Positions 1 to 18,344 of a stretch of DNA of 18,344 bases are shown here, piece by piece; position 1 is the first letter of the stretch; every line of letters starts with the position of its first letter. The stretch is from Hyella patelloides LEGE 07179 (GTDB lineage: Bacteria; Cyanobacteriota; Cyanobacteriia; Cyanobacteriales; Xenococcaceae), in the NCBI RefSeq assembly GCF_900659865.1, contig NZ_LR213899.1, positions 1 to 18,344 on the forward strand, in the 5' to 3' direction. A program made the translations under genes and the position numbers. The notes beneath the pieces are model-generated. The model had not been told where the DNA came from and did not search any database. It was given only the letters and a program-made list of their open reading frames with translations.

Positions 1-16
1 AAAAATCACGAAGAAA

Positions 17-1450: not shown

Positions 1451-1666
1451 GGCTGTTGTTTTTCTTAAAGTACAACTAAAAACTGACAGATTAGATTTAA
1501 TTTTTCCTACACTATTAATCACTAATTCGACCAATCGAACTGGGAATATATCCAGCCACGATCTCGATGTTTGACATAGGAATGAACTACTACAATCAAC
1601 AAGGCGATCTCACTACCTGAAATAGTCAAGTAAGAGCAAAACTACTACTTAAATAGTGAACATTAA

Positions 1667-1879: not shown

Positions 1880-1943
1880 TGTTATTTATTGCTTGTTAGT
1901 GATTGGCTGATATTTACTTGTTTTTTATTCCTCACTCCTTAAC

Positions 1944-2642: not shown

Positions 2643-2657
2643 AATAATTGTTAATTA

Positions 2658-3131: not shown

Positions 3132-3159
3132 ATTAATTGTTCATTATTAATTAGTAAAG

Positions 3160-4584
3160 TTATTGTCTCCCATTATAGTTATCCTGCTCAACCAAAGTGA
3201 TTTTACGAGGTTTATTTAAGTTGTTTAAAACTGGTCTAAGCTGACCTAAATTATCTCTTACTTCTTCTAAAACCTGTGCTAGTTTCGCTGTTTTTTCTAA
3301 AGAACGTAGGCTTTCATCTAGACTAGCTTGCCACTCTCGAAGATCGCTAATTTTACTAGCACTTTTCCCTAAAGCAATTACTCTATTTTCTAAAATATTA
3401 GCAGCCTGTTCTAACTGCTTGGTGATTTGTCTAGCTTGTAAATTCAAACCATCTGCTAAATGATTATTCTTAGCTTTAATTTCTGTCACTAAAGCTTGTA
3501 TTGTAGCTACAGCTTCTTGATTAGCCTGCTGTTGTTGAGCAAAAAATTCCATAAATTGTTGTCGATCTCGATCTGCTAATTGCCTGACTTCTCCCACTTG
3601 AGTAATTACTTGGGAGCTAACATCTTGTACTTTACTAATTTCTGATAAAAAACCTTTTGCTAAAGAACTAGCTGCTTGTTGAGCATAATTATGAGCAGGT
3701 TCGACTAATTTTTCTGGATTGGGAAAATGTTCGTTAATAGCACCTTGTACCGCCGTATTAATAGCTTCTGCGCTAAGACTTTGCTTTTTATCTCTCAGGC
3801 GAGGTAATAATTTATCGTTAATAAAAATATCAATTCCGAGTAACAAACGAGATTCATAACGCTCTACTAACACCAGAGGAATCATTACTAAAACACTCAA
3901 GAAAAGAGCTAACAAAGTAGTATCAAAGGCTACAGCTAAACCACCAGTAACCATTCCAATACCCTCTTTAATTTGCTCAACATCTCCTGCTTCTTGTAAA
4001 AAACCAGAAAAACCACTAACTGCACTACTAATACCAACTACAGTTCCGATAAAACCCAATAGAGGAATTGCCCAAACAAGGATGCGAGGTACGGAAAAAG
4101 AAGACTCTGAAGCACTTTGATAAAAAGAAGAATCATCAAGAGCAAATTCTGTGGCTGTTTCACGATCGCCAGACTTGATGTAAGCTGCTACAATACGACC
4201 ACAACGCCTTGCTACTAGACTACCTTCGCTCATTAAGCGTTCTTGTAAGTAGCTAACTTCATCAGAATTAGGTTTCCCTAATGGAATATGCTCTGCGATC
4301 CAAATTTTACTCAAAGCATTATATTCTGGTTGTAAAGTTAATAGCTTAAGAGATATTGTCGCAATGACCATTGCTGCTAAAAACATTACTAGGTATTGAG
4401 TAAAGCCTCTATCATAGAGTAGAACCCCAATAGCAGACTCTTTAAAAGGATATAGTAGGGTGTAGAAGGCAATTACTAGACCTATACCAATGATACTCAC
4501 TAGAGGTATACTTACCTCTAACTCTTGGCGTTTAGAACTTTGGGTGCGGGATTTCGATCTAGATTTCGATCTAATTTTTTTCAT
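3160..4584 (-). CDS. MotA/TolQ/ExbB-family proton-channel subunit with a long C-terminal alpha-helical (coiled-coil-like) tail
   Basis: 474 aa, ATG start. Two N-terminal TM helices (aa ~25-45 and ~62-84), a soluble loop, then the family signature IPLLGFIGTVVGISSAVSGF ... GIGMVTGGLAVAFDTTLLALFLSVLVMIPLV (aa ~165-250, nt ~3835..4092). Residues ~255-474 are Q/E/A/L-rich and low in Pro/Gly with heptad-like spacing (QQQQANQEAVATIQALVTEIKAKNNHLADGLNLQARQITKQLEQAANILENRVIALGK). Confidence 0.85.
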   Translation of the reverse strand: MKKIRSKSRSKSRTQSSKRQELEVSIPLVSIIGIGLVIAFYTLLYPFKESAIGVLLYDRGFTQYLVMFLAAMVIATISLKLLTLQPEYNALSKIWIAEHIPLGKPNSDEVSYLQERLMSEGSLVARRCGRIVAAYIKSGDRETATEFALDDSSFYQSASESSFSVPRILVWAIPLLGFIGTVVGISSAVSGFSGFLQEAGDVEQIKEGIGMVTGGLAVAFDTTLLALFLSVLVMIPLVLVERYESRLLLGIDIFINDKLLPRLRDKKQSLSAEAINTAVQGAINEHFPNPEKLVEPAHNYAQQAASSLAKGFLSEISKVQDVSSQVITQVGEVRQLADRDRQQFMEFFAQQQQANQEAVATIQALVTEIKAKNNHLADGLNLQARQITKQLEQAANILENRVIALGKSASKISDLREWQASLDESLRSLEKTAKLAQVLEEVRDNLGQLRPVLNNLNKPRKITLVEQDNYNGRQ

Positions 4585-4656
4585 TGTAGTTATTATAATT
4601 TATGGTCATTATTAATAAGCTTTCTGAGCGATCGCTTATGAGGGAGATACTACCGA

Positions 4657-4670
4657 GTAAGTATACTTAC
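4657..4670. promoter_or_regulatory. Perfect 14-bp palindrome GTAAGTATACTTAC in the divergent promoter region (candidate operator)
   Basis: Read directly from the sequence; the site is its own reverse complement. It lies 73 bp upstream of the MotA-like start (4584) and ~280 bp upstream of the lipoprotein start (4953). Flanking CTTATG (4635..4640) and CATAAG (4670..4675) are also complementary. Confidence 0.2.
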
Positions 4671-4952
4671 ATAAGAGGTATTTCAGAAATCAACCTATTA
4701 TCAATGAACTATTATCTTTACTTTATATACGTATACAGTTGAATAATAGTGAAGATAACTAATGTATTTGGGCTATTTGTCTAAAGATTGAGTAAAGAAC
4801 AAAAATTAAGTATTTTTGCGAAACTTAGCATAAAAAGATGATTGTGTAAATTTACTTATAGATTTTATGCTCTCATTTCAAAAATAGCAAAAACACTGAA
4901 TCATATTGAATATCAATTGTATTGGGCTATTGGGATAAATTAGGAGAACACA

Positions 4953-5735
4953 ATGTTGAAAAAAACTCAGATCGGACAAAAAAACAGAAATTATATGGCG
5001 TTTTTGTTCCCTTTTCTGTGTTGTCTTTTAATGCTTTTAACAGGATGCGTTAACTATGACGTAGGGATTAACTTCAATAGCCCCCACAATGGTAATATTG
5101 TCCAGCACATTAAAATTGGACAGCAATTAAACAATCTGGATCGCTCTGATGTCAAAAAATGGTTGAATAGTATAGAGTCGCGATCGCGTAAATTACAAGG
5201 CAAAGTCAAAAAGCCCAATGCTGAAGAACTAATTGTGACTATTCCTTTTCGTAACGGGAAAGAACTAGCAACTAAATTCAATCAACTATTTCATAGCGAA
5301 ATTCCTGCTACCTCTGCGGTTTCTACAGCAGAAAATTCCGACTTAACCAAGCTCGATTCTTATATCACCCTGAAACAAAATAATCTGTTACTGTTAGAAC
5401 GTAATAGCCTAGATTTGGCGATTGATTTGCGAGCATTAAACATTCTCACTCGTCAAGATAAAATAACGATTAACAGCGATCGCTTGATTGACTTGGATTT
5501 TCAACTAAATACCCCCTGGTTAGCTTACAGTGCATCAGGAGAAAATAATCTTCAACCCATTCCTAACTCGCCTACCAAAAAATTAATGTGGCATCTGCAA
5601 CCTGGAGAAATTAATTATATCAAAGCCGTATTTTGGTTGCCAAGTCCTCTAGGAATTGGTGCAGTGGCTATTACTGTCTTGATGATTTTGGGTTTCTACC
5701 TTAAATATCAGCGTTTCCCAGGAGTTGCATCCTGA
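4953..5735 (+). CDS. Lipoprotein with a C-terminal TM anchor, function unknown
   Basis: 260 aa, ATG preceded by AGGAG (4942..4946, 6-nt spacer). Signal peptide with lipobox LLMLLTG-C. C-terminal hydrophobic helix SPLGIGAVAITVLMILGFYL. No catalytic motifs recognised. Confidence 0.7.
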   Translation: MLKKTQIGQKNRNYMAFLFPFLCCLLMLLTGCVNYDVGINFNSPHNGNIVQHIKIGQQLNNLDRSDVKKWLNSIESRSRKLQGKVKKPNAEELIVTIPFRNGKELATKFNQLFHSEIPATSAVSTAENSDLTKLDSYITLKQNNLLLLERNSLDLAIDLRALNILTRQDKITINSDRLIDLDFQLNTPWLAYSASGENNLQPIPNSPTKKLMWHLQPGEINYIKAVFWLPSPLGIGAVAITVLMILGFYLKYQRFPGVAS

Positions 5736-5832
5736 AAGAAAACGCTCAATTTAAGTTGGTTCTTGCGAATCCAAACAAAAACGTGTTATACCTATTTATG
5801 CAGCAAAAGAATGTTTCACTGCAACCACGTAA

Positions 5833-5906
5833 GGACGTATAGCTCAGTTGGTTAGAGTACATCGTTGACATCGATGGGGTCCCCCGTTCGAGTCGGGGTA
5901 CGTCCA
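5833..5906 (+). tRNA. trnV: tRNA-Val (anticodon GAC)
   Basis: Hand-folded cloverleaf. Acceptor GGACGTA/TACGTCC; D arm GCTC-AGTTGGTTA-GAGT; anticodon stem CATCG/CGATG with loop TTGACAT (GAC at 5867..5869); variable loop GGGTC; T arm CCCCG-TTCGAGT-CGGGG; discriminator A. CCA is not encoded. Confidence 0.92.
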
Positions 5907-5946
5907 TATATATTCAGTATATATTGCGATTTTGTGTTGTGACTTA

Positions 5947-6008
5947 AACCATAACTTTACCGTTGTGGCAAGCTTATGTTTAAAAGCAACCTTGGTAAAC
6001 CTATGGTT
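5947..6008. other. Imperfect extended hairpin downstream of tRNA-Val
   Basis: AACCATAACTTTACCGTTG ... CAACCTTGGTAAACCTATGGTT: 15-nt outer arms match 13/15 and an inner GTTG/CAAC pair follows a 3-nt bulge. No adjacent T-run on either strand, so it is not a canonical terminator. Confidence 0.3.
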
Positions 6009-6154
6009 GGAAAAAAAATTAGCAATCAATTCGTTTAAAGTATTTCTCATCTCTTCACACCACAAGTGTCCAGGTTAAGAAATTAATAAAGATCGTATCT
6101 AAACTGGATTTATAGTCGTTCCAATTAATTTCCTTACGTTGTTAAACATTGGTA

Positions 6155-6260
6155 AAAGGATGAAGGATAAAGGATGCCCTAAAGGATACCGCTTCCGCCT
6201 TAGGACTCGCTACGCATCGCGCGACCGAAGGAAGTCCTTTAGGGCATAAAGGATGAAAAG
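6155..6260. repeat. MITE-like palindromic element flanked by AAGGATGAA-type direct repeats
   Basis: Perfect 13-bp inverted repeat ATGCCCTAAAGGA (6174..6186) / TCCTTTAGGGCAT (6235..6247) around a GC-rich 48-nt core. Flanks are AAAGGATGAAGGATAAAGG (left) and AAAGGATGAAAAG (right). The core composition differs sharply from its AT-rich surroundings. Confidence 0.5.
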
Positions 6261-6389
6261 TAGTACTGAGTAACTTGTGGTTTCTATTTGAAATTATTAT
6301 AGTATCAGACGAAATTTGGTAATATTTTAATTGATCCTCAACAAAAGAAATCAAGATTCTCTTAATTAGCCTGACTCATTAAGTATATT

Positions 6390-6417
6390 TTCCTAAGACT
6401 AAATTCCTAAGACTAAA
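6390..6417. repeat. Perfect 14-bp tandem direct repeat (TTCCTAAGACTAAA x2) upstream of the histidine kinase
   Basis: Read directly: 6390..6403 and 6404..6417 are identical. Located ~115 bp upstream of the kinase ATG (6532). Confidence 0.6.
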
Positions 6418-6531
6418 GTCTCCCCACTCAACCAACAACTACTACAAAAGTGATAAATTTAGGCTTTATTGTGGTCATCAGAGTAAACTTAGAACTTTAA
6501 TAAAAGAAGACTCTCCCAACTTATTATTTCC

Positions 6532-7746
6532 ATGATTCCCCCTTTAAAATTTCTCCCCAATCCTTTTCGCTTTTTGCTGATTACTGAATGGGTAATGCTT
6601 GCCAGTTGCGGTTCTCTGGCTGTGGTGGAAGCTTGGCAGGGTCACATGATCCCTGTCCAACACATATCTATTCTAGTGGCACTAGGTTTGATGGGTTTAA
6701 TTTTGCCTAACGGAAGTCTCATAATTAAAGTGATTTATACCGCTATTGAAATTGGCTTAATTTTTTATGGGACGGTATTGGGATACCTGCATATTTTGCC
6801 TACGCTATATCTAATTGTGGTAATGCGGAGTTGCTTTTTGTTTGAATCCTTGGGTCGATGGATCGTAACTGGTTTAGTCTTTATTTTGTTTTTAGGAGAT
6901 CAGTTTAAATATATTCAGCGCGCTTTACCAGAAGAACCAGAGGCTCAAATTCATTTTGGAATGCACACAATAGCAGAAACATTGGTATTTGGTCTGGCTA
7001 TCTTTTTTGTGTTGCAGTTGACCAATAGAATATTAACCGAACGTCAAATGCGACAAAAACTTGCCAATGCTCACGAACAGCTACAGCAGTATGCTCAAAA
7101 AGTTGAAGAACTGGCAACCGTGCAAGAACGTAATCGTATTGCTCGCGACATTCATGACTCTTTAGGTCACGCTCTCACCAGTTTAAATATTCAGATGCAA
7201 ACTGCCGTCAAACTCTGGGAAAGAGAACCCGCACAGGCTCGCACCTTTTTGGCACAGGCTCAACATTTAGGTAAAACAGCAATGCAGGAAGTGCGTAAAT
7301 CCATTAGTACCTTAAGAGAAGATGCCAAAGACGAAAAACCTCTAGAAACCAAAATCGAGGCTTTGGTGGATGATTTTCGCAAAGGAACTGGATTGTCAAT
7401 TTGTACCAACATTAGTCGCTGTGGTTCAGTTCCAATACCAGTGGCTAAAACTGTTTATCGTATCGTACAAGAAGCTTTGACCAACATTTTTAAATACGCT
7501 CAAGCCACAGAAGTCCAAATTCACCTCAAAACCACTCACAAATGGGTTTATCTAACTGTGGAAGATAATGGTAAAGGGTTCGATTGCAAGCAAAAAAGTG
7601 CTGGGTTTGGGCTTCGGGGAATGCAAGAGCGAGTAGTTGCGGTTAATGGTCAATTTCGACTTAAAACCTCACCAGGAAAAGGCTGTCGAATAGAAGTGCA
7701 AATTCATAGTCTGAATGAATCTAAGAATGTTCTACAAGAAGTTTGA
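6532..7746 (+). CDS. Membrane sensor histidine kinase, NarL/DegS type (HisKA_3 + HATPase_c)
   Basis: 404 aa. The first ~165 aa are hydrophobic with about five TM helices. Coiled linker, then H-box ERNRIARDIHDSLGHALTSL (His208 at 7153..7155), N-box QEALTNIFKYA, G1 EDNGKGF, G2 GFGLRGMQER. Confidence 0.9.
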   Translation: MIPPLKFLPNPFRFLLITEWVMLASCGSLAVVEAWQGHMIPVQHISILVALGLMGLILPNGSLIIKVIYTAIEIGLIFYGTVLGYLHILPTLYLIVVMRSCFLFESLGRWIVTGLVFILFLGDQFKYIQRALPEEPEAQIHFGMHTIAETLVFGLAIFFVLQLTNRILTERQMRQKLANAHEQLQQYAQKVEELATVQERNRIARDIHDSLGHALTSLNIQMQTAVKLWEREPAQARTFLAQAQHLGKTAMQEVRKSISTLREDAKDEKPLETKIEALVDDFRKGTGLSICTNISRCGSVPIPVAKTVYRIVQEALTNIFKYAQATEVQIHLKTTHKWVYLTVEDNGKGFDCKQKSAGFGLRGMQERVVAVNGQFRLKTSPGKGCRIEVQIHSLNESKNVLQEV

Positions 7747-7748
7747 TA

Positions 7749-7789
7749 AATAGCGATCGCACATTAGCCGAATACTCGCGATCGCTATT
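7749..7789. repeat. HIP1-based hairpin between the convergent kinase and regulator genes
   Basis: AATAGCGATCGC (7749..7760) and GCGATCGCTATT (7778..7789) form a perfect 12-bp inverted repeat with a 17-nt loop, starting 3 bp after the kinase stop. A third GCGATCGC follows near 7810. Confidence 0.6.
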
Positions 7790-7832
7790 GAGCTATTTCA
7801 CTCTTATTGCGATCGCTATAAAAATTAATTAC

Positions 7833-7861
7833 CTGAGATTTTAAAGAAATCTCAGTCTTTT
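7833..7861. terminator. Candidate bidirectional intrinsic terminator
   Basis: CTGAGATTT (7833..7841) / AAATCTCAG (7847..7855) with a 5-nt loop, followed by TCTTTT on the plus strand and by an A/T-rich run with TTTTT on the minus strand. The stem is AT-rich, so it is weak. Confidence 0.35.
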
Positions 7862-7868
7862 AAGCTAC

Positions 7869-8510
7869 TTATCTAGCACAATTAGCATAAATAGCTATCT
7901 GCGATCGATTGCGTAGATTTAGTCGATTTAGAATATGAGTAACATGAGTTTTGACAGTTCCTTCAGCGATATAAAGTTGTTTGGCAATTTCACGATTAGT
8001 ACAACCAGTACCAATTAATTGTAGTACTTCTACTTCCCTTGGGGTCAACTCTGTTAGCTCTAGTTCATCTGATTCAGTTTCGGTTATGCTGGAATCTAAA
8101 ATACCATCGAGCATTTTTTCCATTAGTCCAGGTCCCATCTGGGTATATCCCCGATGTACTAACCGAATTGCCTGGGCTAGCTCTTCGACAGGCATATCCT
8201 TAAGCAGATATCCTTTTGCTCCTGCTTTAATGGCATGAGCGATGTAGTCATCTTCATCAAATGTGCTGACAACTAAAACCTTAACATCGGGAAATCTTTG
8301 AGCAATAATTCTCGTTGCTTCTCTTCCGTCCATGATAGGCATCCTGATATCCATCAAGACGACATCTGGTTTGAGAATTGCTACCTGTTCAATAGCAGTT
8401 TGCCCATTGTTAGCAATTCCTACTACTTCTAAATCTGACTCCAGATTTAACATTGCTTGTAATCCCTGAGAAACTAATTCTTGATCGTCTACCAGTAAAA
8501 GGCAAATCAT
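7869..8510 (-). CDS. Response regulator, NarL/FixJ family (REC + LuxR-type HTH)
   Basis: 213 aa. LLVDDQ acidic pocket, phospho-acceptor context VVLMDIRMPIMDG (Asp54), KGYLLKD. C-terminal LTPREVEVLQLIGTGCTNREIAKQLYIAEGTVKTHVTHILNRL is a classic LuxR/GerE HTH. GGAG lies ~9 nt upstream of the ATG. Confidence 0.92.
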   Translation of the reverse strand: MICLLLVDDQELVSQGLQAMLNLESDLEVVGIANNGQTAIEQVAILKPDVVLMDIRMPIMDGREATRIIAQRFPDVKVLVVSTFDEDDYIAHAIKAGAKGYLLKDMPVEELAQAIRLVHRGYTQMGPGLMEKMLDGILDSSITETESDELELTELTPREVEVLQLIGTGCTNREIAKQLYIAEGTVKTHVTHILNRLNLRNRSQIAIYANCAR

Positions 8511-8764
8511 TCAAATTAACTCCAGCTTTTGATATGAATAAAACTTAGACTTTGCTGATTTAAAGCAGAAACTAAAAGTAATACTGTTCGGAGCTTCAGA
8601 GCTTCGGAGCTTTTAGTTGATTATCATTCTTTAAGACTATAAAAGTAATCAACATGGTGACAGGATCGGCAAAGGGTATACTAGCATCTCTTACTATCAA
8701 TTCGCGGTCATACCAAATCCGAATTACATACCCAGTTTATATATGAAACCGTTAACCCACTCCA

Positions 8765-8784
8765 AGACGTATCATGATACGTCT
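8765..8784. repeat. Perfect 20-bp palindrome AGACGTATCATGATACGTCT, partnered with a distal GTAGAGACGT
   Basis: Read directly; the site is self-complementary. Its right edge extends to ACGTCTCTAC (8779..8788), whose reverse complement GTAGAGACGT recurs at 8886..8895. CAAATCCG / CGGATTTG form another inverted pair ~100 bp apart. Confidence 0.6.
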
Positions 8785-9266
8785 CTACACTAAATATTGA
8801 TTGGGGTTTTACTAAACGGATTTGAGATCAGACACAATCCTATTGACACACAATATAATATTTAGCGATAAAATCGTTAAATCCTGTAGAGACGTGTTTA
8901 TAGGATGTTCTGATAATCATATTTGATATTATACCCTGATTCAGCAACGCCAACTTGATTATTGATAGTTTTTAAATTCAGTAAAATATCATTGCAGAAC
9001 TTCTGAAAACTCTTGTTTAAATTTTTTTACCTTAGAACACCAATTTTGGTATTTCTGCCAAATTTCTAAGTACAGAAAATAATTAATTAACAGGAAATAG
9101 TTAATTTTACAAAAGTAATAAAGTACCAACCTTATTTGAGTAATTGCGATCGCAATCTGCTTTTTTTGTTTAATCAGGCTTTGTGCGTTGTGCTTTGCTA
9201 ATTTGATTTGAATTCACACACACTTGATATTAGTAATAACCTCAATATTAAATCCTTAGATTACGT

Positions 9267-12200
9267 TCACGTCACGCAAGAGATCGCGCCTAAAATTTTC
9301 AGAGTTTCTTGTTGTGCAGGGGTTAAACCAGTTACTCCAGTAATATTCATATTTTCATAGAGTCTAGGAACTCTAAGGGTTTTCAGACATTCCCCCGTTG
9401 CTACATCCCAAAGTTTGGTAGATTGATCTTGAGAACCACTGGCAAGAATTCTCCCATCAGGGCTAAAGGTAACGGAACAGACTTTATTGCTATGTCCGAT
9501 TAAAGTTTGCAGACATTTTCCTGTTTGGATATCCCATAATTTAACAGTTTGATCGCTACTACCACTGGCTAAGATTTCCTGAGTGGAGTTGCTGGAAAAT
9601 ATAGAAGTAGCAGCAACGGAAAAAACAAATCCTTGATGTCCTTCAAAAACCCTGAGACATTTTCCTGTAGCAATATCCCACAATCTAACTTGATTGTCTG
9701 CACTACCACTAATAATAGCCTTATCGTTTGGACTGAAGGCAACGGAATAGACTCCTGGAGAATCTTCAGCAATATAAGTCTGCAAACATTTTTTGCTGTT
9801 AAAATCCCATAATTTAATTGCACCATTACTACTTCCACTAACCAGAAATTTCCCGTCTTCACTAACAGTTAAAGACCAGACTTGAGGTTCAGAAATCACA
9901 GTATAAATTCCAGTGTTAAGATTCCAAAATCTGATTGTGCCATCCCCTCCACTACTAACTAGGGTTTGACCATCAGGATGAAAAGCGATCGCCCTAATCC
10001 AGTCTTCATGACCCACTAAAGCTTGGTTACATTCACCAGTATTGATATCCCATATTCTAATCTGGCGATCTGCACCACCACTAGCGAGAATTTTGTCCCT
10101 ATTCGAGGATAAACTATTAGGACTAAAAACAACCGACCAAATATGATCTTGATGTCCTGATAAAGTTTGCTGGCACTCTCCTGTTTGAATATCCCATAGT
10201 CTCACTTTATAGTCACTGGAAATACTAGCTAAAATCAAATTGGTTTGTTTTTGAGTAAAAGCAACGGGAAATGCCCAATCTGTATGACTTTCGATATTAC
10301 GGAGACATTGTCCTGTAGTGACATCCCATAGCTTGACGGTGCGATCTAAACTAGCACAAATTACAGTATTTTCATCAGCCCCAAAATCAACTGTGACGAT
10401 CTGATTTTTGTGTCCGTATAAAGTTTTAAGACACCGATCTGTAGTTATATCCCATATTCTGATGGTGGTATCACCACTCCCGCTAGCAAAGATAAATCTT
10501 TTGCCACTATTGCTCAAAGGACTAAAAGCAATGGAATAGACTCCACTACTATGATCGGTATAGGTTTTATGACATTTACCTGTTTTCAGATTCCACAGCT
10601 TGATAGTATGGTCGTCACTCCCACTAGCCAGAATCACACCTTCTGACTGATTCAACGGAATCGGACTAAAAGCAACCGAACGTATCCAACCATGATGTCC
10701 CGTTAAAGTTTGCAGACATTCCCCTGTCTGGATATTCCATAATTTGACAGTGCGATCGCTACTACCACTAGCCAGAATTGTACCATCGGGACTAAATGCA
10801 ACCGAACGTACCCAACCATTATGTCCCGTTAAAGTTTGTAGACATTCCCCTGTTTGGATATCCCATAATTGAATACTGCGATCGCTACTGCCACTAGCTA
10901 GAATTATACCATTGGGACTAAATGCCACTGTATAAATTTCATTTTTGTGTCCGATAAAAGTTCTTAAACATTCTCCTGTCTGGATATCCCATAATTGAAT
11001 ACTGCGATCGCTACTGCCACTTACTATCATCTGACCATCGGGACTAAAAGCAATGCAACGAACCCAATTATGATGTCCCTCACAAACAGTTAGTAATTTA
11101 CCTGTATACCTATCCCAAAGACTTACTTTGTTTCCATTATCACAAGTTGCAAATTTATCCCCTTGAGGACTCAAAGCAGCCGATAAAATATTACCTAAAG
11201 TTGCGGTAAATATCGACTGAGATAGATCGCAATTAGTAAAATCAGTCTGATGTAAATTTAAACCTTGTAAATTAGCTTGCCAAACTGTTAATCCTGAAAA
11301 GTTATAATCAGTTAAATCGATTTTTAATTGACGTAATAAATTAATCGTATTACCAGCAAAATAACCTTTTATTGATTTCGCTTTCCAGGTTGCTAAATTC
11401 TTTTTTAAACAATTATTAATATCTTCGGCTGTGCCACAGGTAAACAATAATTCCTCTATCAAGGGTTTTAGAATCAGAAAGCTTTGTGAATCTTTAATGT
11501 ATTCTTTATTTTGAGCTTGAATGAGAGCATGACTATTGAATAAATTAATTTCTCCTGTAACTATTTCCTCACAAACTCTCTCAATTAATTCACTGATTAT
11601 ATATTCTATGATTACAGGTTGTTGAGTAAATTTATTATTATTAGTTTCAATTAAAGAACGATTTTTTAAATCAGTTAAAGCTTGAATTAAATCGCCTAGG
11701 GAAAGATTCGCAACAAAGTTTTCTTGTAATTTAGATAATGAAATTGGCTGACGCTCAATTGCCAACCAATACATAATATTTTGTTCGATCTGGTTGAGAC
11801 GTTGAAATTGTCGCTCCAAAAGAAGACGAATATCGTCAAAGATAAATAAGCCTTCTTGTAAAACTGCTAAAAAATCTTCAATATTACCAGAGAAAAAATC
11901 TTTGATATGAGAAGCAACAATCTTTAAAGCCAAAGGATTACCCCCATATCTTTCTAGCAATATTTGCCAAGTTGTTTCTGAACCACTAAATGAACCTTTA
12001 GTCTGGAAAATTTCTTTACCTTCTGCTTGTGACAAACCCTTTAATGGCAAACAACGATTAGGAAAATTTTTTCCTTCTAAAATTTCTAATTCTTTAAGTT
12101 TTTCCCTTGAGCTAATTAGTAAACAGCTTTGATGTTTAGTTTCAGCAATTGCTTGAAAAAGCTGACCGTATGCTTCGTAACCTTCTCGATAATGATTATT

Positions 12201-12890
12201 ATTGGGTGTTTGCTTATTTTCTAAAATAGATTCTGCATTGTCTAAAATTAATAAGCATTTATGATTACGCAAATATTCAAGCAATAAATTAATTTTATCT
12301 ACAGTTTTATCGGGTAGTTTTGTTTCTTTTTTATTACTAACAAATTGAATAATATCTGCTAATATGCTTTTACAAGAAGGTGCATTGCGAAGACTACGCC
12401 AAATAACAAAATTAAATTGATACTGAATGCTTTGGGCTATTTTAATCGCTAAAGCAGTTTTGCCAATTCCACCCATTCCTAACAGTAAAATCGAGCGACA
12501 TCGATCGCTTATAATCCATTTTCTGAGGGTGATTATTTCTTTTTGACGACCAAAAAATACAGAAACATCAATGGCTTCTCCCCAATCTTGATGATTGAGA
12601 TGAAAATCTTGATGAACGCTGCGATCTGAAATTACGCTTTGCCATTCCAAACCTAAAACTTGACAATAAGCTTGAAAAGCGCGATCGTTAATAGGATGTT
12701 TACCCCCCAAAAAACGTTTCCAAGTACCATAGGATATCCCTGAAGCTAACTTGTCCTCTTTTTCTCTAAAAATACCCAAAACTTCACTCGCAGACTCCAG
12801 CCAGCGATAATCATTAATATTCCAACCTTTTTCTTTTCTCGCTTGCTTAATGTTCCTCAGTCCTATGGCAGAAGCTATCAGCTTTTTCAT
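9267..12890 (-). CDS. STAND/NLR-like NTPase: N-terminal HTH-like/adaptor domain, NB-ARC P-loop, short pentapeptide stretch, 14 WD40 repeats, C-terminal cap motif
   Basis: 1207 aa, ATG start. Walker A GMGGIGKT (aa 138-145, nt 12456..12479); Walker [11 protein letters not shown]; [10 protein letters not shown], equivalent to the NB-ARC GLPLA motif. Pentapeptide-like [23 protein letters not shown] (aa ~539-561). I count 14 units of the pattern GH..x..VAFSPDG..LASGS.D.T(V/I)(K/R)LW(D/N) across aa ~563-1172 (nt ~9375..11204). Tail is [26 protein letters not shown]. Confidence 0.9.
10644..11021 (-). repeat. Three tandem 126-bp (42-codon) WD40 units with near-identical DNA blocks
   Basis: GCGATCGC occurs at 10752, 10878 and 11004, exactly 126 bp apart. 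The 53-nt blocks 10843..10895 and 10969..11021 differ at 2 positions. Units 2 and 3 are also near-identical through their centres (AACCGAACGTA(C/T)CCAACCAT(T/G)ATGTCCCGTTAAAGTTTG(T/C)AGACATTCCCCTGT). Protein: [17 protein letters not shown] twice, then [17 protein letters not shown]. Confidence 0.85.
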
Positions 12891-13177
12891 TCTTTACGAA
12901 GTGTTTAAAACAGAGAACAAGATAACCTTGTTTTGATTTTACACTTCTCGATCCTGAATTTTGTCTCGAAAAAATTCAAAATCGATCTGCGGAATTATTC
13001 GATTATTGATTTTCTTGAGAATTTGAGAAATTTTGCGATCGCGTTTGGCTCTAACATACGATCTTGACAAATATTAAAATTTAAAGTGAATAAAACGATT
13101 TCATCTTAAGCTGTAGTCAATAGGCATAATTAGTCACAACCTATTTATTGTGAGAAAAACTATCTAAAACAGTATCG

Positions 13178-16100
13178 ATGGTTGCCCTAAAAGTCTCTGC
13201 TCGGAGTTTAGCAATAGTAAAACAAGCCAGAAAAGCCAAAGGTTGGACAATTGATGATTATCGCTGGTTAGAAGAAGCCAGTAAAGTTTTGGGTACTTCA
13301 TGGCAAGAAAAAGGTTATTTTGCTAATGGTATTTCCGAAGGGACTTGGAAGCGTTTCTTATCAGGAAAATACGCAGTTAATGTTGATGCTTTTAAAGCCT
13401 TTTGTCAGGTTCTCGGACTCAAATGGCAAGAAATTATCGACCACAAAAATCATCAAGATTGGGGCGAAGAAATAGATGTTTCTGTATTTTTTGGGCGATC
13501 GCAAGAAATCAAGATGTTGCAAAAATATATTCTTGAAGATCGATGTCGTCTCGTTACCGTATTAGGTATGGGGGGAATTGGTAAAACTTCTCTGTCTATT
13601 AAAGTTACTCAATTAGTTGAAAATAAATTTGAATTTGTTATTTGTCGTAGTCTTCGCAACACCCCATCTGTAGAACAGGTAATAGCCGATTTCATTCAAT
13701 TTGTAAGCAAGCAAAAGCAAAAAGATTTACCCAATTCTTTAGAGCAAAAAGTGTCTCTTTTACTGCAATACTTAAGCTCGTCCCGTTGTCTTTTGATACT
13801 AGATAATGTGGAATCAATTTTACAGAGTGGCAACAATAAATCTCCTAATTTATCAAGAGAATCATATCGGGTAGGCTATGAAAATTATGGCTACTTAATA
13901 AGAGCGATCGCAGAAGCCAAACATCAAAGCTGCCTAATCTTAACCTCTCGCGAATCACTCCCCGAATTATCTACTTTAGAAGGAGACAATTTACCAGTTC
14001 GCTGTCTCCAACTAACAGGACTATCTCATCTAGAAGGACAAAAACTTTTATCGGCAAAAGGTTCTTTCTCTGGTACAAAAACAGAATGGCAGTCCTTAGT
14101 CGCTCGCTATAGTGGCAATCCTTTAGCTTTGAAGATAGTTTCCTCTAGCATTCTAGATTTTTTTAATGGTAGCGTTACGGATTTTATTAAAGTTTTACAA
14201 CAAGATCCCTTGATTTTCGATGATATTAGCGATCTCTTACAGCAGCAATTTACACGTTTAACTCTATTACAACAACAAATTATGTACTGGTTGGCAATTA
14301 ATCGCGAGCCAATTTCGATTCAAAATTTACAACAAGACTTGATAATTCCAGTTTCTTCTAGAGTATTATTTCAAGCTTTAATTTCTTTGCAAAAACGCTC
14401 TCTGATTGAAAATATTGATAACTTATTTAGTCTACAAACAGTAGTATTAGAATATATTATTTATCAATTAATTGTCAAAATTACCGAAGAAATAGTCAAT
14501 CAAAATATTGATATTTTAAATAAAATTTCTTTAGTAAAATCTCAAGCTAAAGATTATCTTAGAGAATCTCAAGAAACCCAACTAATTAGACCTATTGTCA
14601 ATAATTTAAGCAACTTTTTAGGAAGACGTGAAAATATCAAAAAGCAGATAGATGAAATTTTACAATCGCTACATTCTCAATCTCACTCTCAACAAAGAGG
14701 CTATTTAAGTGGTAATATTATCAATATTTTGCGTCATCTAAATATAGATTTACAAGGCTATGACTTTTCAGGATTAACAGTTTGGCAAGCTAACTTACAG
14801 GGACTAAAATTACATAACGTTAATTTTGCTAATGCAGACTTATCGAAATCAGTTTTTACTGAAACTTTAGGTAATATTTTATCCGCTATCTTTAGCCCTG
14901 ATGGTAAAACTTTAGCTACTTGTGATACTGATTGTCAGATTCGCCTCTGGGAAGTAGCAACAGGTAAACTTTTAATTATTTGCAAAGGGCATACTAATTG
15001 GATACGTTCTATTGCTTTTAGCCCTGATGGTAATGTTCTAGCCAGTGGTGGAGCAGATCGCACGGTCAAATTTTGGCAAGTTAAGGATGGTATTTGTCTC
15101 AAAACTTGTCGAGGACATGAAAATGAAATCTTTTCAGTTGCTTTTAGCCCTGACAATAAAACCTTAATTAGTGCTAGTGGAGATCATATTCTGCGTCTTT
15201 GGAATATTACCACTGGTAAATGTATTCAGACCCTTGAAGGACATGAAAGTTATGTGCGCTCGGTGGCATTTAGTCCCCTCGGCGATCTTGTTGCTAGTGG
15301 TAGTGACGATGGCACTATGAAAATTTGGGATATTACCACTGGTGAATGTATTCAAACCCTCAAAGACCATAAAAATGGGGTTCGTTCAGTAGCGTTTAGC
15401 CCTGATGGTCATGTTTTGGCTAGTGGAAGTAGCGATCGCACTGTCAAATTATGGGATGTTTCTACGGGAAAATGTCTTGCTACTTACAAACAGCATACTT
15501 CTGGAGTTTCTGCGGTTGCTTTTAGTTCCGATGGCATGACTTTAGCTAGCGGGAGTTGCGATCGCACTGTCAGGCTATGGAATTATCATACAGGCACTTG
15601 TATCCGAACTATTTACGGACACACTAATCAAATCTTTTCTCTTGCTTTTAGTCCAGAAGGAAGAAAAATAGTTTGTGTCAGTTTAGATCAAACTGTCAGA
15701 ATTTGGGACTGTCATAATGGGAAATGTTTAAAAACTTGGCAAGGTAGTACAGATTGGGTATTCCCCGTAGCCTTTAATTCTCAGGGTAATTTAATTGCTA
15801 GTGGTAGCAATGACAGTACTGTCAGAATTTGGGACTGGGAAAACAATGTTTGTCTTCAGAGTTTATCTGGTCATAGCGATCTAGTTTGTGCTGTCGCCTT
15901 CGCGCCCATTAACTCTAAGGGAATAGTTGCTAGTGCTAGTCGCGATCGCACGATTCGACTCTGGGATGTGACTACAAGTAAATGCTTGCAGATTTTGCAA
16001 GGACACGAAGACTGGGTATATGCAGTGGCATTTAGTCCTGATGGTACTATCTTAGCTAGTGGTGGCGCAGATCAAACCGCTAAACTTTGGGACATTAAAA

Positions 16101-16762
16101 CTGGTAATTGTTTCAAAACCTTTTCAGGACATACCAATCAAGTATGGTCAGTAGCTTTTCATCCCGATGGTAAAATTCTGGCTACTAGCAATAGCGATCC
16201 TATTATTAGACTATGGGATCTTGAGACAAATAATTTATTAACCAGCTTAACAGGACATAAAAATAGAGTAACATCAGTAGATTTTAGTCCGATCCTCGAT
16301 CAGGGGAGAAATAAAGGGGGGATTCTCGCCAGTGGTAGCATGGATAACGCGATCGCTATTTGGGATTATCAACAAGGTCAATTAATTAAAACTCTGAAGG
16401 GACATGATAATTGGGTGTTTTCTGTAGCCATTAGTCCCGATGGTCAAACTTTAGCTAGTGCTTCCCACGACCAAAGCGTGAGACTATGGGATATTGAGAC
16501 TGGCAAATGTCTGCATATCTGCCACGGAAATGATTATTTAGCTTCTTCTGTTGCTTTTCATCCTCACGGTCACATTGTTGCTAGTGGTTCGCAAGATCAA
16601 ACTATAAGATTGTGGGAAGTCGAAACAGGTAAGTGTCTACAAATACTGCAATTAGCCAGATTATATGAGGGCATGAACATCACTGGGGCAAAAGGTTTGA
16701 CCTCCGCTCAAAAAGCAACTCTTAAAGCTTTAGGGGCTTCATCGGGTGGAGCATTCATTTAA
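13178..16762 (+). CDS. STAND/NLR-like NTPase, full-length collinear paralog of 9267..12890
   Basis: 1194 aa, ATG start. Walker A GMGGIGKT (aa 130-137, nt 13565..13588); Walker B CLLILDNVES; [10 protein letters not shown]. Pentapeptide-like ANLQGLKLHNVNFANADLSKSVF. 14 WD40 units across aa ~562-1158 (nt ~14861..16651). Tail is LYEGMNITGAKGLTSAQKATLKALGA. The N-terminus KQARKAKGWTIDDYRWLEEASKVLG...GISEGTWKRFLSGK...FKAFCQVLGLKWQE parallels the partner gene. Confidence 0.9.
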   Translation: MVALKVSARSLAIVKQARKAKGWTIDDYRWLEEASKVLGTSWQEKGYFANGISEGTWKRFLSGKYAVNVDAFKAFCQVLGLKWQEIIDHKNHQDWGEEIDVSVFFGRSQEIKMLQKYILEDRCRLVTVLGMGGIGKTSLSIKVTQLVENKFEFVICRSLRNTPSVEQVIADFIQFVSKQKQKDLPNSLEQKVSLLLQYLSSSRCLLILDNVESILQSGNNKSPNLSRESYRVGYENYGYLIRAIAEAKHQSCLILTSRESLPELSTLEGDNLPVRCLQLTGLSHLEGQKLLSAKGSFSGTKTEWQSLVARYSGNPLALKIVSSSILDFFNGSVTDFIKVLQQDPLIFDDISDLLQQQFTRLTLLQQQIMYWLAINREPISIQNLQQDLIIPVSSRVLFQALISLQKRSLIENIDNLFSLQTVVLEYIIYQLIVKITEEIVNQNIDILNKISLVKSQAKDYLRESQETQLIRPIVNNLSNFLGRRENIKKQIDEILQSLHSQSHSQQRGYLSGNIINILRHLNIDLQGYDFSGLTVWQANLQGLKLHNVNFANADLSKSVFTETLGNILSAIFSPDGKTLATCDTDCQIRLWEVATGKLLIICKGHTNWIRSIAFSPDGNVLASGGADRTVKFWQVKDGICLKTCRGHENEIFSVAFSPDNKTLISASGDHILRLWNITTGKCIQTLEGHESYVRSVAFSPLGDLVASGSDDGTMKIWDITTGECIQTLKDHKNGVRSVAFSPDGHVLASGSSDRTVKLWDVSTGKCLATYKQHTSGVSAVAFSSDGMTLASGSCDRTVRLWNYHTGTCIRTIYGHTNQIFSLAFSPEGRKIVCVSLDQTVRIWDCHNGKCLKTWQGSTDWVFPVAFNSQGNLIASGSNDSTVRIWDWENNVCLQSLSGHSDLVCAVAFAPINSKGIVASASRDRTIRLWDVTTSKCLQILQGHEDWVYAVAFSPDGTILASGGADQTAKLWDIKTGNCFKTFSGHTNQVWSVAFHPDGKILATSNSDPIIRLWDLETNNLLTSLTGHKNRVTSVDFSPILDQGRNKGGILASGSMDNAIAIWDYQQGQLIKTLKGHDNWVFSVAISPDGQTLASASHDQSVRLWDIETGKCLHICHGNDYLASSVAFHPHGHIVASGSQDQTIRLWEVETGKCLQILQLARLYEGMNITGAKGLTSAQKATLKALGASSGGAFI

Positions 16763-16873
16763 CATTGAGCATTAAACAATTTATTTTTACTATTAGTAAA
16801 TCTCGGAAGGTGACAGAAGAGGGCCAATTCGTAATTAAGCTCAATTTTTTGTAAAGTGTATATTTAGGTAAGG

Positions 16874-16897
16874 CAGGTTATAAGCAACCTGTTTTAA
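16874..16897 (+). terminator. Candidate intrinsic terminator downstream of the plus-strand NLR-like gene
   Basis: CAGGTT (16874..16879), loop ATAAGC, AACCTG (16886..16891), followed by TTTTAATT. Short 6-bp stem, ~110 bp after the stop codon. Confidence 0.3.
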
Positions 16898-16936
16898 TTA
16901 TGTGTAATCAAAACCGACTTATAACTTATAACTTAG

Positions 16937-17353
16937 ATGAGCGATTCAACAGAAACTTTATTCGATCGAGCCATAGAGAAATATCAAGCAGGAGAAGCAG
17001 CAGAAAACTTAATCCCAACTTTTCAAGAAATTTGTACCAGCACTCCTAAAAACTCCGCAGCTTGGACTTGTCTGGCTTGGTTGTACCTTTTGCAAGAAAA
17101 ACCCCAACAAGCCCTTAAAGCAGCCCAAAGAAGCATCAAAATCGAGCCTAGGGATCCTCAAAGTCAGCTTAATCTAGCTTTGGCAATGTTAGAAATAGGG
17201 CAAAAAGGAGTCCGTAAACATATCGAAATTGTGCAACAAGCAATTGATTTCGATGAAGATATTAAAACTACTCTGAAAGAAAACATCGAAGAAGGTTTAC
17301 AAAGAAAACCCGATTGGAAAAGCTTGCAAAAAGCTAAGAATTGGTTATTTTAA
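16937..17353 (+). CDS. Small TPR-like repeat protein
   Basis: 138 aa, ATG start. AAWTCLAWLYLLQEKPQQALKAAQRSIKIEPRDPQSQLNLALAML fits the TPR helix-turn-helix consensus (W/L..Y....A...A..P). Confidence 0.55.
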   Translation: MSDSTETLFDRAIEKYQAGEAAENLIPTFQEICTSTPKNSAAWTCLAWLYLLQEKPQQALKAAQRSIKIEPRDPQSQLNLALAMLEIGQKGVRKHIEIVQQAIDFDEDIKTTLKENIEEGLQRKPDWKSLQKAKNWLF

Positions 17354-17480
17354 CAGCAATCAATTTACTACGACTTCCCTTGAGAAAATTCCAGCAAAGA
17401 AGCTAACAGTTAAGATAATAGCCAATGGCTACGAAAACTATCACTATCGACTTCATCCCCAAAATCAACAACGCCAAATT

Positions 17481-18344
17481 ATGAATTTATCAAAGCAATT
17501 ACTCATCGGTTTAAAAGCGGATGGCTTTCGTCATCCTCTAGATTTAGAAGCAACTAACACCTTAAAACAACTACCAGGATTAGACGTAGTCATTCGTAGT
17601 ATTTTAGGTTCTGTAGGGGAACAATTTTTTTATCTCAATAACATCGCCTCTAGTGTATTAGTGAGCGCAAAACAATTACCAGACTTACACAAACTATTGA
17701 TAGAAGCTTGTCAAATTCTCGATCTCGAACCTCCTCAACTATACGTACAGCAAAACCCCGTACCTAATGCTTATACCTTTGCCATGCGGGGTAAAAAGCC
17801 TTTTATTGTATTGCATACATCTTTGATCGAGATGTTAACTCCTGAAGAGATACAAGCAGTAATTGCTCACGAATTGGGTCATCTCAAATGCGAACATGGG
17901 GTGTATCTGACAATGGCTAATATCATGGTGCTAGCAACTAATCTGTTACCCACTTGGGGGACGGTGCTAGCACAGTCACTACAAGAGCGTATTTTACAAT
18001 GGGTACGTTGTGCAGAATTTAGTTGCGATCGCGCAGCTTTGTTAGCTACCCAAGACCCTAAGACTATCATGTCTGTGTTAATGAAGCTAGCGGGTGGTTC
18101 TCCTACCTTAGCTCCTCAGTTAAATTTGGATGCTTTTATCGAGCAAGCCAGAGCTTACGATGCTGCTAGTGAAGATAGCTTAGGTGAAACCCTCAGAATG
18201 ATGCAAAATGCCCAATTAAGTCACCCTGTTCCTGTAATTCGGGCTAGAGAAATTGAACGCTGGGCGAGTTCAGCACAATATCAGAATTTATTACAGCAAC
18301 ATAATAGTAAGTTAGATAATTCTGGAAAATGGCGTAATTGGTAG
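17481..18344 (+). CDS. M48-family zinc metallopeptidase (HtpX/Ste24-like)
   Basis: 287 aa, complete; the stop TAG at 18342..18344 is the last codon of the window. HExxH motif AHELGHLKCEHG (His130 at 17868..17870) with downstream EFSCDRAA, typical of soluble cyanobacterial M48 peptidases. Confidence 0.88.
   Translation: MNLSKQLLIGLKADGFRHPLDLEATNTLKQLPGLDVVIRSILGSVGEQFFYLNNIASSVLVSAKQLPDLHKLLIEACQILDLEPPQLYVQQNPVPNAYTFAMRGKKPFIVLHTSLIEMLTPEEIQAVIAHELGHLKCEHGVYLTMANIMVLATNLLPTWGTVLAQSLQERILQWVRCAEFSCDRAALLATQDPKTIMSVLMKLAGGSPTLAPQLNLDAFIEQARAYDAASEDSLGETLRMMQNAQLSHPVPVIRAREIERWASSAQYQNLLQQHNSKLDNSGKWRNW

Follow-up and report, generated by a model that had tools for sequence, protein, structure and literature searches.

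STAND proteins, the signal transduction ATPases that have numerous domains, include transcription factors in which a NOD (nucleotide-binding oligomerization domain) and a sensor auto-inhibit a DNA-binding domain, and in which inducer and ATP bring about its release and multimerization (PMC10936776, PMC4381067, bioRxiv 10.64898/2026.09.02.748808). In AfsR of Streptomyces coelicolor, ATP binding ends an inhibition of the DNA-binding domain by the NOD and the sensor (PMC10936776), and this protein has explicitly been termed a transcription factor of the nucleotide-binding leucine-rich repeat receptor (NLR) type (bioRxiv 10.64898/2026.09.02.748808). Four features have been used to define plant paired NLRs: the genes are clustered, they are oriented head-to-head, the sensor contains an integrated non-canonical domain, and the partners depend on each other one to one; some pairs, such as Pi5-1/Pi5-2, were born by duplication (PMC9528088). 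"Bacterial NLRs" (NB-ARC or NACHT with WD or TPR repeats) of multicellular bacteria have been catalogued repeatedly (10.1101/2020.01.06.895854), NLR-like genes are enriched in multicellular cyanobacteria (10.1101/2020.01.06.895854; PMC7159879), and a 2024 census lists NB-ARC and WD40 as accessory domains of cyanobacterial sigma70-region-4 proteins (PMC11119718). Here we analyze a head-to-head pair of NB-ARC-WD40 genes, A and B, from Hyella patelloides LEGE 07179, a baeocyte-forming pleurocapsalean cyanobacterium, and compare it with these systems. The window, that is, the whole stretch of DNA analyzed, comprises 18,344 nucleotides (contig NZ_LR213899.1 of assembly GCF_900659865.1, positions 1 to 18,344). 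Six of the proteins it encodes, A and B among them, are identical to records of this genome.

A and B are the two largest open reading frames (ORFs) of the window, with the following layout.

9267..12890, minus strand: gene A, 1207 amino acids (aa), VEP12415.1 / WP_144870413.1, annotated "NB-ARC domain-containing protein"; in order, XRE-type helix-turn-helix (HTH), NB-ARC NOD, helical arm, pentapeptide linker, 14 WD40 repeats, conserved C-terminal tail
12891..13177, unstranded: divergent spacer of 287 bp between the start codons of A and B (12890, 13178)
13178..16762, plus strand: gene B, 1194 aa, VEP12416.1 / WP_144870415.1, annotated "NB-ARC domain-containing protein"; architecture the same as in gene A

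A first-pass annotation of this DNA had described the two genes as full-length, collinear, divergently transcribed paralogs. ORF coordinates, strands, and start codons all agree with that description, and BLASTP aligns the proteins from residue 1 to the C-terminal tail (619/1221 identities, or 51%; 67% positives; E=0). Identity varies by region, at 58% in the HTH, 57.5% in the nucleotide-binding domain, 54% in the ARC, 34% in the arm, 69% in the pentapeptide stretch, 50% in the WD40 repeats, and 60% in the tail. The features it had quoted were also found in both proteins: Walker A GMGGIGKT and GNPLALK, the pentapeptide stretch (Pfam PF00805 at about residues 525-564; 24.8 bits in A and 20.7 in B, cut-off 20.2), the tail LYE.MNITG..GLT.AQ..TLK.LGA, the correspondence of "repeat 7", and 14 WD40 units each by our own count, where Pfam detects 12 stretches in A and 14 in B.

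We read A and B as paralogs in a large, usually solitary cyanobacterial family of STAND (NB-ARC/AP-ATPase) proteins with an XRE-type HTH output, probably signal-gated transcription regulators, and as old duplicates that do not form an obligate sensor/helper module; we put the probability of this reading at roughly 0.55. Most likely they are two independently acting regulators, and the pair is probably not a new two-part immune receptor.

The N-terminal domain is where this reading begins.

12621..12890, minus strand: A residues 1-90, Cro/C1 (XRE)-type HTH, from the family invariants and the same helices in a model of A residues 1-560
13178..13447, plus strand: B residues 1-90, Cro/C1 (XRE)-type HTH, from Pfam, an AlphaFold (AF2) model, and Foldseek

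Whole-protein Pfam scans were swamped by WD40 families, and residues 1-570 were scanned separately. B then matched HTH_31 (E 3.9e-4) and HTH_26 (E 7.1e-4), and A matched HTH_31 weakly (E 0.06). An AF2 model of the B domain, built on an 18-sequence alignment (predicted local distance difference test, pLDDT, 80.9), returned XRE-type HTH domains as all 50 of its top 50 Foldseek matches in the PDB, including ClgR, an XRE regulator of M. smegmatis, HipB, SinR, the TP901-1 CI N-terminal domain, C.BclI, CapH, ComR, and PrgX. An insertion separates helices 2 and 3 of the domain. Across homologs the domain is conserved to an extreme degree, with invariant K15, Q16, A17, R18, G22, W23, W30, E32, A34, and S35, followed by G51, S53, G55, T56, W57, K58, R59, F60, L61, G63, and K64; the predicted recognition helix, G-T-W-K-R-F-L-x-G-K, is invariant across the family. 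Homologs at JGI and NCBI are labeled "transcriptional regulator with XRE-family HTH domain" or "helix-turn-helix domain-containing protein". In close homologs whose NOD is 45-55% identical, the N terminus is swapped for GerE/LuxR (39.1 and 26.5 bits), HTH_3 (24.1 bits), or another Cro/C1-like variant. By its modeled fold, then, the domain is a Cro/C1 (XRE)-type HTH and the predicted DNA-binding output of both proteins. The first-pass annotation had seen no recognizable effector; given the HTH output in A and B, that claim holds for killing domains only, since no nuclease, protease, TIR, or other killing domain was found in either protein.

Behind the HTH lie the switch, the arm, and the sensor.

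11571..12569, minus strand: A residues ~108-440, NB-ARC NOD (Pfam, motifs, AF2 model, fold search); Walker A GMGGIGKT at aa 138, Walker B LLILDN at 213, SSRE at 260, GNPLALK at 317, FTQQP at the MHD position
~11601-11630, minus strand: A residues 421-430, MHD-equivalent stretch, placed by by-eye alignment only
11196..11570, minus strand: A residues 441-565, helical arm (the most divergent region, 34% identical to B), then a short pentapeptide-repeat stretch (69%)
9375..11195, minus strand: A residues 566-1172, 14 WD40 repeats, two predicted 7-bladed propellers
10663-11079: array in A with a 126-bp period (one WD40 unit), 3.3 copies, 79% DNA identity between units
13475..14485, plus strand: B residues ~100-436, NB-ARC NOD (Pfam, motifs); GMGGIGKT at aa 130, LLILDN at 205, TSRE at 256, GNPLALK at 313, FSLQT at the MHD position
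~14426-14455: B residues 417-426, MHD-equivalent stretch FSLQTVVLEY, placed by by-eye alignment only
14870..16657, plus strand: B residues ~565-1160, 14 WD40 repeats
15198-15475: array in B with a 126-bp period (one WD40 unit), 2.2 copies, 73% DNA identity between units

Pfam places the switch in NB-ARC over NACHT, at 46.5 versus 36.4 bits in A and 41.5 versus 23.3 bits in B (NB-ARC cut-off 23.5). The solved structures nearest to a sequence profile of the non-WD40 module also favor NB-ARC, namely, the plant coiled-coil NLRs (CNLs) ZAR1, Sr35, MLA13, and NRC4, together with AfsR and PH0952. When an AF2 model of A residues 1-560 (pLDDT 72.9) was searched with Foldseek, the best match was Apaf-1 (3j2t, E 1.2e-7), followed by plant TIR-type NLRs (WRR4A, RPP1, and Roq1), archaeal STAND-like ATPases, and MalT; the global TM-scores of these matches are low (0.25-0.36) because domain orientations differ. 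The model resembles Apaf-1 and plant NLRs in its fold of nucleotide-binding, helical, and winged-helix domains. The first-pass annotation had recognized the Apaf-1 plan, an NB-ARC followed by two WD40 propellers, and it was right to do so, because the Pfam assignment, the nearest structures, and the Apaf-1 fold match agree.

Walker A GMGGIGKT and Walker B LLILDN are invariant across the family alignment. In bacterial NB-ARC-TPR proteins, the MHD region follows the pattern hhxFxxHPhhxEY; in our by-eye alignment, a Q is invariant in this family where NB-ARC proteins have the histidine of the MHD (bacterial MHP) motif, a winged-helix residue that contacts ADP. AfsR becomes autoactive upon mutation of its HD motif (bioRxiv 10.64898/2026.09.02.748808), and the Q position is therefore a candidate switch residue. 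In the sensor, the identity between units of the WD40 arrays suggests intragenic recombination or concerted evolution. Comparably high internal repeat conservation has been reported for the WD and TPR domains of fungal and bacterial NLRs.

If the HTH is an output domain, where might it bind? The loci used for this question and below, cited by L-number, came from 79 genome fetches, 80 metagenome fetches, and 7 contigs around specific homologs, or 152 loci after duplicates were removed. We compared the 300 bp upstream of HTH-bearing homologs for shared sites, and the 10-mer AAACTGATCT was present in 17/35 upstream regions, against a maximum of 4 in shuffles. The candidate operator is an inverted repeat, CAAGATCAGTTTT-N-AAAACTGATCTTG. 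From the end of its proximal arm to the start codon, the distance is about 30-300 bp (80-150 bp in most cases), and the repeat directly adjoins a -35-like TTGGCG/TTGACA and a -10-like TATGCTATT.

L010:9863-9907, with others in L008, L013, L014, L037, L019, L012, L017, and L028: inverted repeat, examples
L002, L005-L007, and L089-L095: inverted repeat, further loci
L008, L010, L013, L019, L037, L012, L017, and L028: PNPOx-like gene, at about -220 to -1110 from the regulator start
L002 and L005-L007: extra gene for a ~200-aa glutathione S-transferase (GST) beside the PNPOx-like gene

The half-site AAACTGATCTTG (at most one mismatch) occurs 55 times in the 1.39 Mb of fetched loci, with 32 occurrences in the 24 kb just upstream of family genes, an enrichment of about 78-fold in those 300-bp regions, and 31 of these 32 precede genes encoding this HTH. 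The association was replicated out of sample on independent metagenome loci, where 8/15 HTH-bearing homologs had the site and 0/50 HTH-less homologs did (Fisher p=1.3e-6). Start-to-start spacing of the arms is 32 nt in 15/21 loci, with variants of 21 nt and 44 nt; since these steps are about one helical turn, the half-sites lie on one face of the DNA, as expected of a protein-binding site. Across the shared, repeat-bearing promoter region, the regulator is usually divergent from a gene for a PNPOx-like protein of ~298 aa (MSFHSGEI.VQTQAGVREEA...), and a second copy of the repeat, 1.1-2.1 kb upstream, is located at the promoter of an operon for a ~150-aa protein, a ParA-like ATPase, and a ~470-aa protein. 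From their positions, the PNPOx-like, GST, and ParA-like operon genes are a candidate regulon. Repeat, regulator, and divergent gene together fit the textbook arrangement in which a regulator and its target flank a palindromic operator, to which the HTH would bind.

The family is large. Homologs of the HTH+NOD module number >2480 at E<=1e-10 among scored candidates, the named ones nearly all from filamentous or colonial cyanobacteria, and at least 579 family loci were confirmed among GTDB species representatives. The HTH subtype itself forms 457 representative clusters at 50% identity in an exhaustive profile search and almost always occupies residues 1 to ~95; a word-index search with the 95-aa N-terminal domain alone yielded only 17 short proteins, among which were several truncated genes and fragments. 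An NCBIfam scan gave no informative family for A or B. The accessible text of PMC11119718 and 10.1101/2020.01.06.895854 contains no description of the XRE-type N-terminal subtype, its operator, or its neighborhood, and that of Kaur et al. 2020 (PMC7159879) and Dyrka et al. 2020 describes neither this HTH subtype nor paired bacterial NLRs. Many paralogs occur per genome, and it is common for a family gene to be broken or interrupted by an insertion sequence (IS), as in these cases.

L083:10001-13616: B-like gene split into 149+1073 aa by a frameshift
L001:8993-12290: homolog P0004, split into 807+305 aa
L084:10001-15704: IS-disrupted remnant in Pleurocapsa PCC 7319, a 73-aa HTH remnant and a WD40 fragment with a DDE transposase and a TPS-domain gene between them

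In the H. patelloides genome, duplicated genes are reported to make up an unusually high share, 27% (PMC7381351), and the A/B pair is an ordinary outcome of paralog expansion.

How general is the head-to-head arrangement? A tblastn search of the flanks with the HTH+NOD module found a head-to-head adjacent paralog in 0/152 non-redundant homolog loci, of which 143 included at least 500 bp of upstream sequence and 129 at least 2 kb. A second family copy lay within the flanks in five loci.

L011: second copy divergent, 8 kb distant
L025 and L163: second copy tandem, starts about 6-7.5 kb apart
L052: second copy convergent
L086 (GCA_029980045.1, JARPNC010000918.1): A-like gene 3953-7492 and B-like gene 7555-10239, tandem on the same strand with a 62-bp gap

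L086 is the only other A-like/B-like adjacency among the loci examined. Its genes are tandem and therefore do not share a divergent promoter, and the start of the A-like gene overlaps an upstream 495-aa gene without a Pfam match. Of all loci examined, Hyella alone has the head-to-head layout. The first-pass annotation had proposed a duplication kept in a fixed inverted arrangement and an obligate pair; the fixed arrangement found no support in this comparison, and in the family as a whole members are usually solitary, an outcome that the annotation itself had named as one that would refute its reading.

The age of the duplication, in contrast to its arrangement, was borne out. The nearest relatives of A are L087 (62-65% identical), L004/L088 from Pleurocapsa sp. 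MO_192.B19 (59-63%), and the A-like gene of L086, L086a (60.5%). Those of B are L009 (72%), L083 (~70% overall and 80% over the N-terminal ~95 aa), L018 (63%), and the B-like gene L086b (63%), with L018 coming from the same Pleurocapsa metagenome-assembled genome, MO_192.B19, as L004/L088. A and B are each closer to the relatives in their own clade than to one another (51%). In a neighbor-joining tree (no bootstrap), the A- and B-clades are sisters that branch congruently within, L001 being basal to the two; on this tree, the lineages split after the duplication had taken place. Both clades are kept in at least three genomes, those of Hyella, GCA_029980045.1, and Pleurocapsa sp. MO_192.B19, and are adjacent in two of them.

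Elsewhere, the surroundings differ. The B-like gene of L083 is followed by a TPR gene, as in the window, and has DUF4278, CHRD/RTX, and IS605 genes upstream, with no A-like gene within 10 kb on either side. No family-related sequence was found in the 628 bp upstream of the B-like gene of L009, and an IS66 transposase lies upstream of that of L018. Upstream of the A-like gene of L004/L088, at a distance of 104 bp, lies an RTX-like gene, and the 230-340 bp downstream contain no B-like start. A check of contig edges likewise found no B-like start after the A-like genes of L004, L087, and L088 and no A-like end before the B-like gene of L009. The RTX-like gene, a repetitive RTX/beta-helix-like gene of ~465 aa located divergently upstream, was considered as a general partner and rejected: it recurs in L004/L088 (L004:354-1745), L001 (7282-8691, 63% identity), and L108 only, is unrelated to the 495-aa gene of L086, and has left no remnant in the window. 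Judged by gene order, it is local synteny.

Given this variable arrangement and the tandem pair of L086, the Hyella adjacency looks like what a tandem duplication left behind after a local inversion. On the simplest history, the duplication, old and probably tandem, would have occurred in a Pleurocapsales subclade; both copies would have been retained, probably with different sensor specificities (the WD40 repeats are 50% and the arms 34% identical), and a local inversion in the Hyella lineage would have brought them head to head.

By analogy with AfsR and MalT, we infer how such a protein might work. At rest, the protein would be a monomer with an inactive HTH, held in this state by an ADP-bound NOD, the arm, and the WD40 sensor. 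The two WD40 propellers would bind a ligand, most probably a protein or peptide, and binding would lift auto-inhibition, allowing exchange of ADP for ATP and oligomerization of the NB-ARC. The oligomer would then juxtapose XRE-type HTH domains on inverted-repeat operators at promoters and so alter transcription. The PNPOx-like and GST genes beside the relatives hint at a response to redox conditions or a role in detoxification.

The degree of confidence in this reading is tempered by several points that weigh against it. All Pfam HTH matches of A and B are under gathering thresholds, and single Foldseek E-values for the HTH are weak (0.03-0.3), though the class is unanimous. The inverted repeat correlates strongly with one syntenic neighbor, the PNPOx-like gene: among HTH-bearing loci with enough upstream sequence, 21 have both, 6 the repeat only, 1 the neighbor only, and 17 neither, so that another regulator could bind it. 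Many of these loci are syntenic orthologs and therefore not independent, which makes phylogenetic non-independence a concern. Most members of the A/B subclade lack the repeat or have degenerate copies; in L009, the nearest B ortholog, it is recognizable but degenerate. Literature searches turned up no experimentally characterized family member. That three genomes have kept both clades, and that two of these have them side by side, exceeds what a solitary model strictly predicts, and the identity between WD40 units (79% over 3.3 x 126 bp in A) is a hallmark of diversifying NLR-type recognition, not of housekeeping.

The 287-bp spacer belongs among these points as well: neither position weight matrix (PWM) scans nor paired half-site scans detected the canonical operator there. 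The best half-site PWM scores in the spacer, 5.3 and 3.8, rank 16 and 24 in the window, and the best paired site has 8/24 mismatches, equaled in 64/300 shuffles and in 18/127 other sub-windows of the same size. Two features were recorded.

12948..12985, unstranded: imperfect palindrome TCGATCCTGAATTTTGTC / GAAAAAATTCAAAATCGA, 15/18 complementary, 58-95 bp upstream of the A start
13060..13069, plus strand: GATCTTGACA, promoter-proximal half-site core fused to a -35-like TTGACA, 109-118 bp upstream of the B start

The palindrome was equaled in 5/300 spacer shuffles. The 10-mer GATCTTGACA is identical at the half-site/-35 junction of L001, L011, L015, and L033, and is not significant alone. A GATC...GATC arrangement at 13038-13069 was considered as an operator variant with 21-nt spacing and is not claimed, as its arms are degenerate and the left one overlaps a HIP1 palindrome. 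With no canonical operator detected in the spacer, the operator supports the mechanism proposed for the family, and not self- or cross-regulation by A and B.

It is tempting to see in A and B immune sensors akin to Avs or bNACHT, with WD40 propellers that detect phage or other foreign protein and an HTH effector that triggers a defense or suicide program, and this account, which we regard as doubtful, concerns biological role and is compatible with a transcription-factor mechanism. Consistent with it are the NLR-type architecture and the enrichment of such genes in multicellular cyanobacteria already mentioned, the many paralogs per genome, the frequent pseudogenization and IS disruption (L083, L001, L084), and the control of defense systems by XRE-type regulators such as CapH, itself among the HTH fold matches. 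Similar WD40 repeats, paralog expansion, and gene decay therefore leave room for an immune or "conflict" role exerted through transcriptional output. However, what relatives have as a conserved partner, a PNPOx-like flavoprotein that in some cases comes with a GST, is of metabolic or redox character; neither A nor B has a killing domain; and PADLOC, run on A, B, and all neighbors, matched no Avs, bNACHT, or other STAND defense model. What it did match in A and B was a WD40-driven HEAT-ARM_XIII and, marginally, the P-loops of IetA and PDC-S27. The defense assignment was tried in this way and gave nothing convincing for the pair or its neighborhood, which is as follows.

1944-2642, minus strand: ORF of 232 aa, no family match
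2658-3131, minus strand: ORF of 157 aa, no family match; with the preceding ORF, follows the MotA/ExbB-family gene on the same strand
3160-4584, minus strand: MotA/ExbB-family protein, 474 aa, with weak PADLOC similarity to ZorA (E 8e-6 to 5e-4)
6532-7746, plus strand: HisKA_3 histidine kinase
7869-8510, minus strand: LuxR/GerE-type response regulator, convergent with the kinase gene and beside gene A

The ZorA similarity is the sole defense-related signal among the neighbors; the genes at 1944-4584 could be an uncharacterized MotA-like module, and on sequence the evidence is too weak for Zorya. The analogy to Avs and bNACHT drawn in the first-pass annotation thus finds no PADLOC match and no defense context. 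Nothing was found that links the two-component genes to the A/B pair. Other neighbors in the window encode a TPR protein, an M48 peptidase, a DUF3153 protein, and a HEAT/Nfu_N protein. In the window, Rfam gave no match that reached its gathering threshold. The 756 bp from the response-regulator gene to the 3' end of A (8511-9266) are AT-rich and contain no ORF of at least 50 aa and no Rfam match.

A second account, which we consider unlikely, is functional coupling, in which A and B would form a hetero-oligomeric switch or a sensor and its helper, co-regulated from the 287-bp spacer and co-evolved since the duplication. The head-to-head layout and short shared spacer are real, the sister clades with congruent topology persist together in the three genomes named above, L086 offers a second adjacency, and the palindrome in the spacer is mildly significant. 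Against this, the orientation is not conserved, the L086 genes being tandem; B-like genes stand alone in L083 and L009, and the A-like gene of L004/L088 and the B-like gene of L018 have RTX-like and IS66 neighbors upstream; and none of the family loci examined is head-to-head. We also found no sensor/helper asymmetry: Walker A, Walker B LLILDN, the sensor-1 S/TSRE, the GxP motif GNPLALK, and the Q at the MHD position are intact in both. The first-pass analogy to plant sensor/helper pairs lacks support on the same ground, as A and B are collinear with identical motifs and neither has the integrated domain that defines such pairs (PMC9528088). Altogether, the HTH output in both proteins, the solitary family, the lack of asymmetry, and an operator in HTH-bearing relatives pointing to AfsR/MalT-like STAND factors leave the sensor/helper reading unsupported. 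One specific form of coupling, a hetero-oligomeric, two-sensor, NLR-like transcription switch, in which both proteins engage or one restrains the other under mutual control from the Hyella spacer, would explain why A and B were retained together, and we hold it to be a shade less probable again. If it were true, the pair would be a bacterial counterpart of paired NLRs, and co-dependent A and B would, to our knowledge, be the first paired NLR-type bacterial proteins known.

Very improbable is the idea that the N-terminal domain does not bind DNA and serves instead as an adaptor between proteins, comparable to effector-associated domains in conflict systems, to recruit an effector encoded by a separate gene: sub-threshold Pfam matches, the insertion between helices 2 and 3, the adaptor-bearing STAND proteins documented in PMC7159879, and the short domain-only proteins in databases are in its favor, but the top 50 fold matches are all DNA-binding XRE domains, invariant basic residues sit in the predicted recognition helix, the conserved inverted repeat co-occurs specifically with HTH-bearing genes, the alternative N termini of close homologs are bona fide GerE and HTH_3 domains, and several of the short proteins are gene fragments, contig-end pieces, or frameshifted genes.

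Returning to A and B as independent STAND transcription regulators, we can now set them beside the known systems. The plant pairs RGA4/RGA5, RRS1/RPS4, and Pik-1/Pik-2 share with them two head-to-head NB-ARC genes and a short intergenic region. By the definition of paired NLRs given at the outset, A and B show clustering and head-to-head orientation, in the Hyella genome only, and the integrated domain is absent from both. Unlike the plant pairs, they have identical architecture, intact motifs, an orientation that is not conserved in relatives, and an HTH in place of a coiled-coil or TIR output. Avs1-5 and bNACHT have the same tripartite design of effector, STAND ATPase, and repeat sensor; in contrast, A and B fall in the NB-ARC clade, have no nuclease, protease, TIR, or Sir2 effector, lie in no defense island, and lack a PADLOC match. 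Some caution is due before every bacterial NB-ARC-repeat protein is read as an immune receptor.

Apaf-1, Dark, and CED-4 share the NB-ARC NOD followed by two WD40 propellers, predicted at 7+7 blades in A and B. The propellers of Apaf-1 have 7+8. Its output is a CARD that recruits caspase-9, whereas that of A and B is an HTH with no protease link. MalT of Escherichia coli (NOD-arm-sensor-LuxR HTH) resembles what we propose for A and B in its STAND logic, HTH output, multimerization by inducer and ATP, and repeated sites. It also gave the highest TM-score (8bob_C) among PDB matches to the HTH+NOD model, and close members of the family carry a LuxR/GerE HTH. However, the HTH of MalT is C-terminal and LuxR-type, its sensor is a helical-repeat domain (SUPR/TPR-like) for maltotriose, and it belongs to a different STAND clade.

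AfsR, a SARP-NOD-arm-TPR activator, has the same order as A and B, with an N-terminal DNA-binding domain, an NB-ARC-type NOD, a helical arm, and a C-terminal repeat sensor, and it is among the nearest solved structures to the A/B module by sequence (E 4.7e-5). A and B differ from it in having a Cro/C1 (XRE) HTH in place of an OmpR-type SARP domain, 14 WD40 repeats in place of TPR, a pentapeptide stretch between arm and sensor, and a Q at the MHD histidine position. The candidate operator of the family, as predicted from sequence, is an inverted repeat, whereas that of AfsR consists of direct repeats. The same organisms also have the cyanobacterial fusions of sigma70 region 4 or LuxR HTH to NB-ARC and WD40 (PMC11119718) and the "bacterial NLRs" described for multicellular bacteria (10.1101/2020.01.06.895854), which have the same NOD family (45-55% identical) and a WD40 sensor; the class of the N-terminal HTH alone differs, and the published accounts are catalogues of architectures. 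The family-level prediction of an operator and a regulon is the most useful outcome of this work, the pair itself less so: a vague "bacterial NLR" annotation is turned into testable predictions of an operator, a regulon, and autoactive NOD mutants in the style of AfsR. Beside AfsR, MalT, and the sigma70 and LuxR fusions, a large, uncharacterized set of cyanobacterial "NB-ARC/WD40 NLR-like" proteins appears to consist of STAND regulators with an HTH output.

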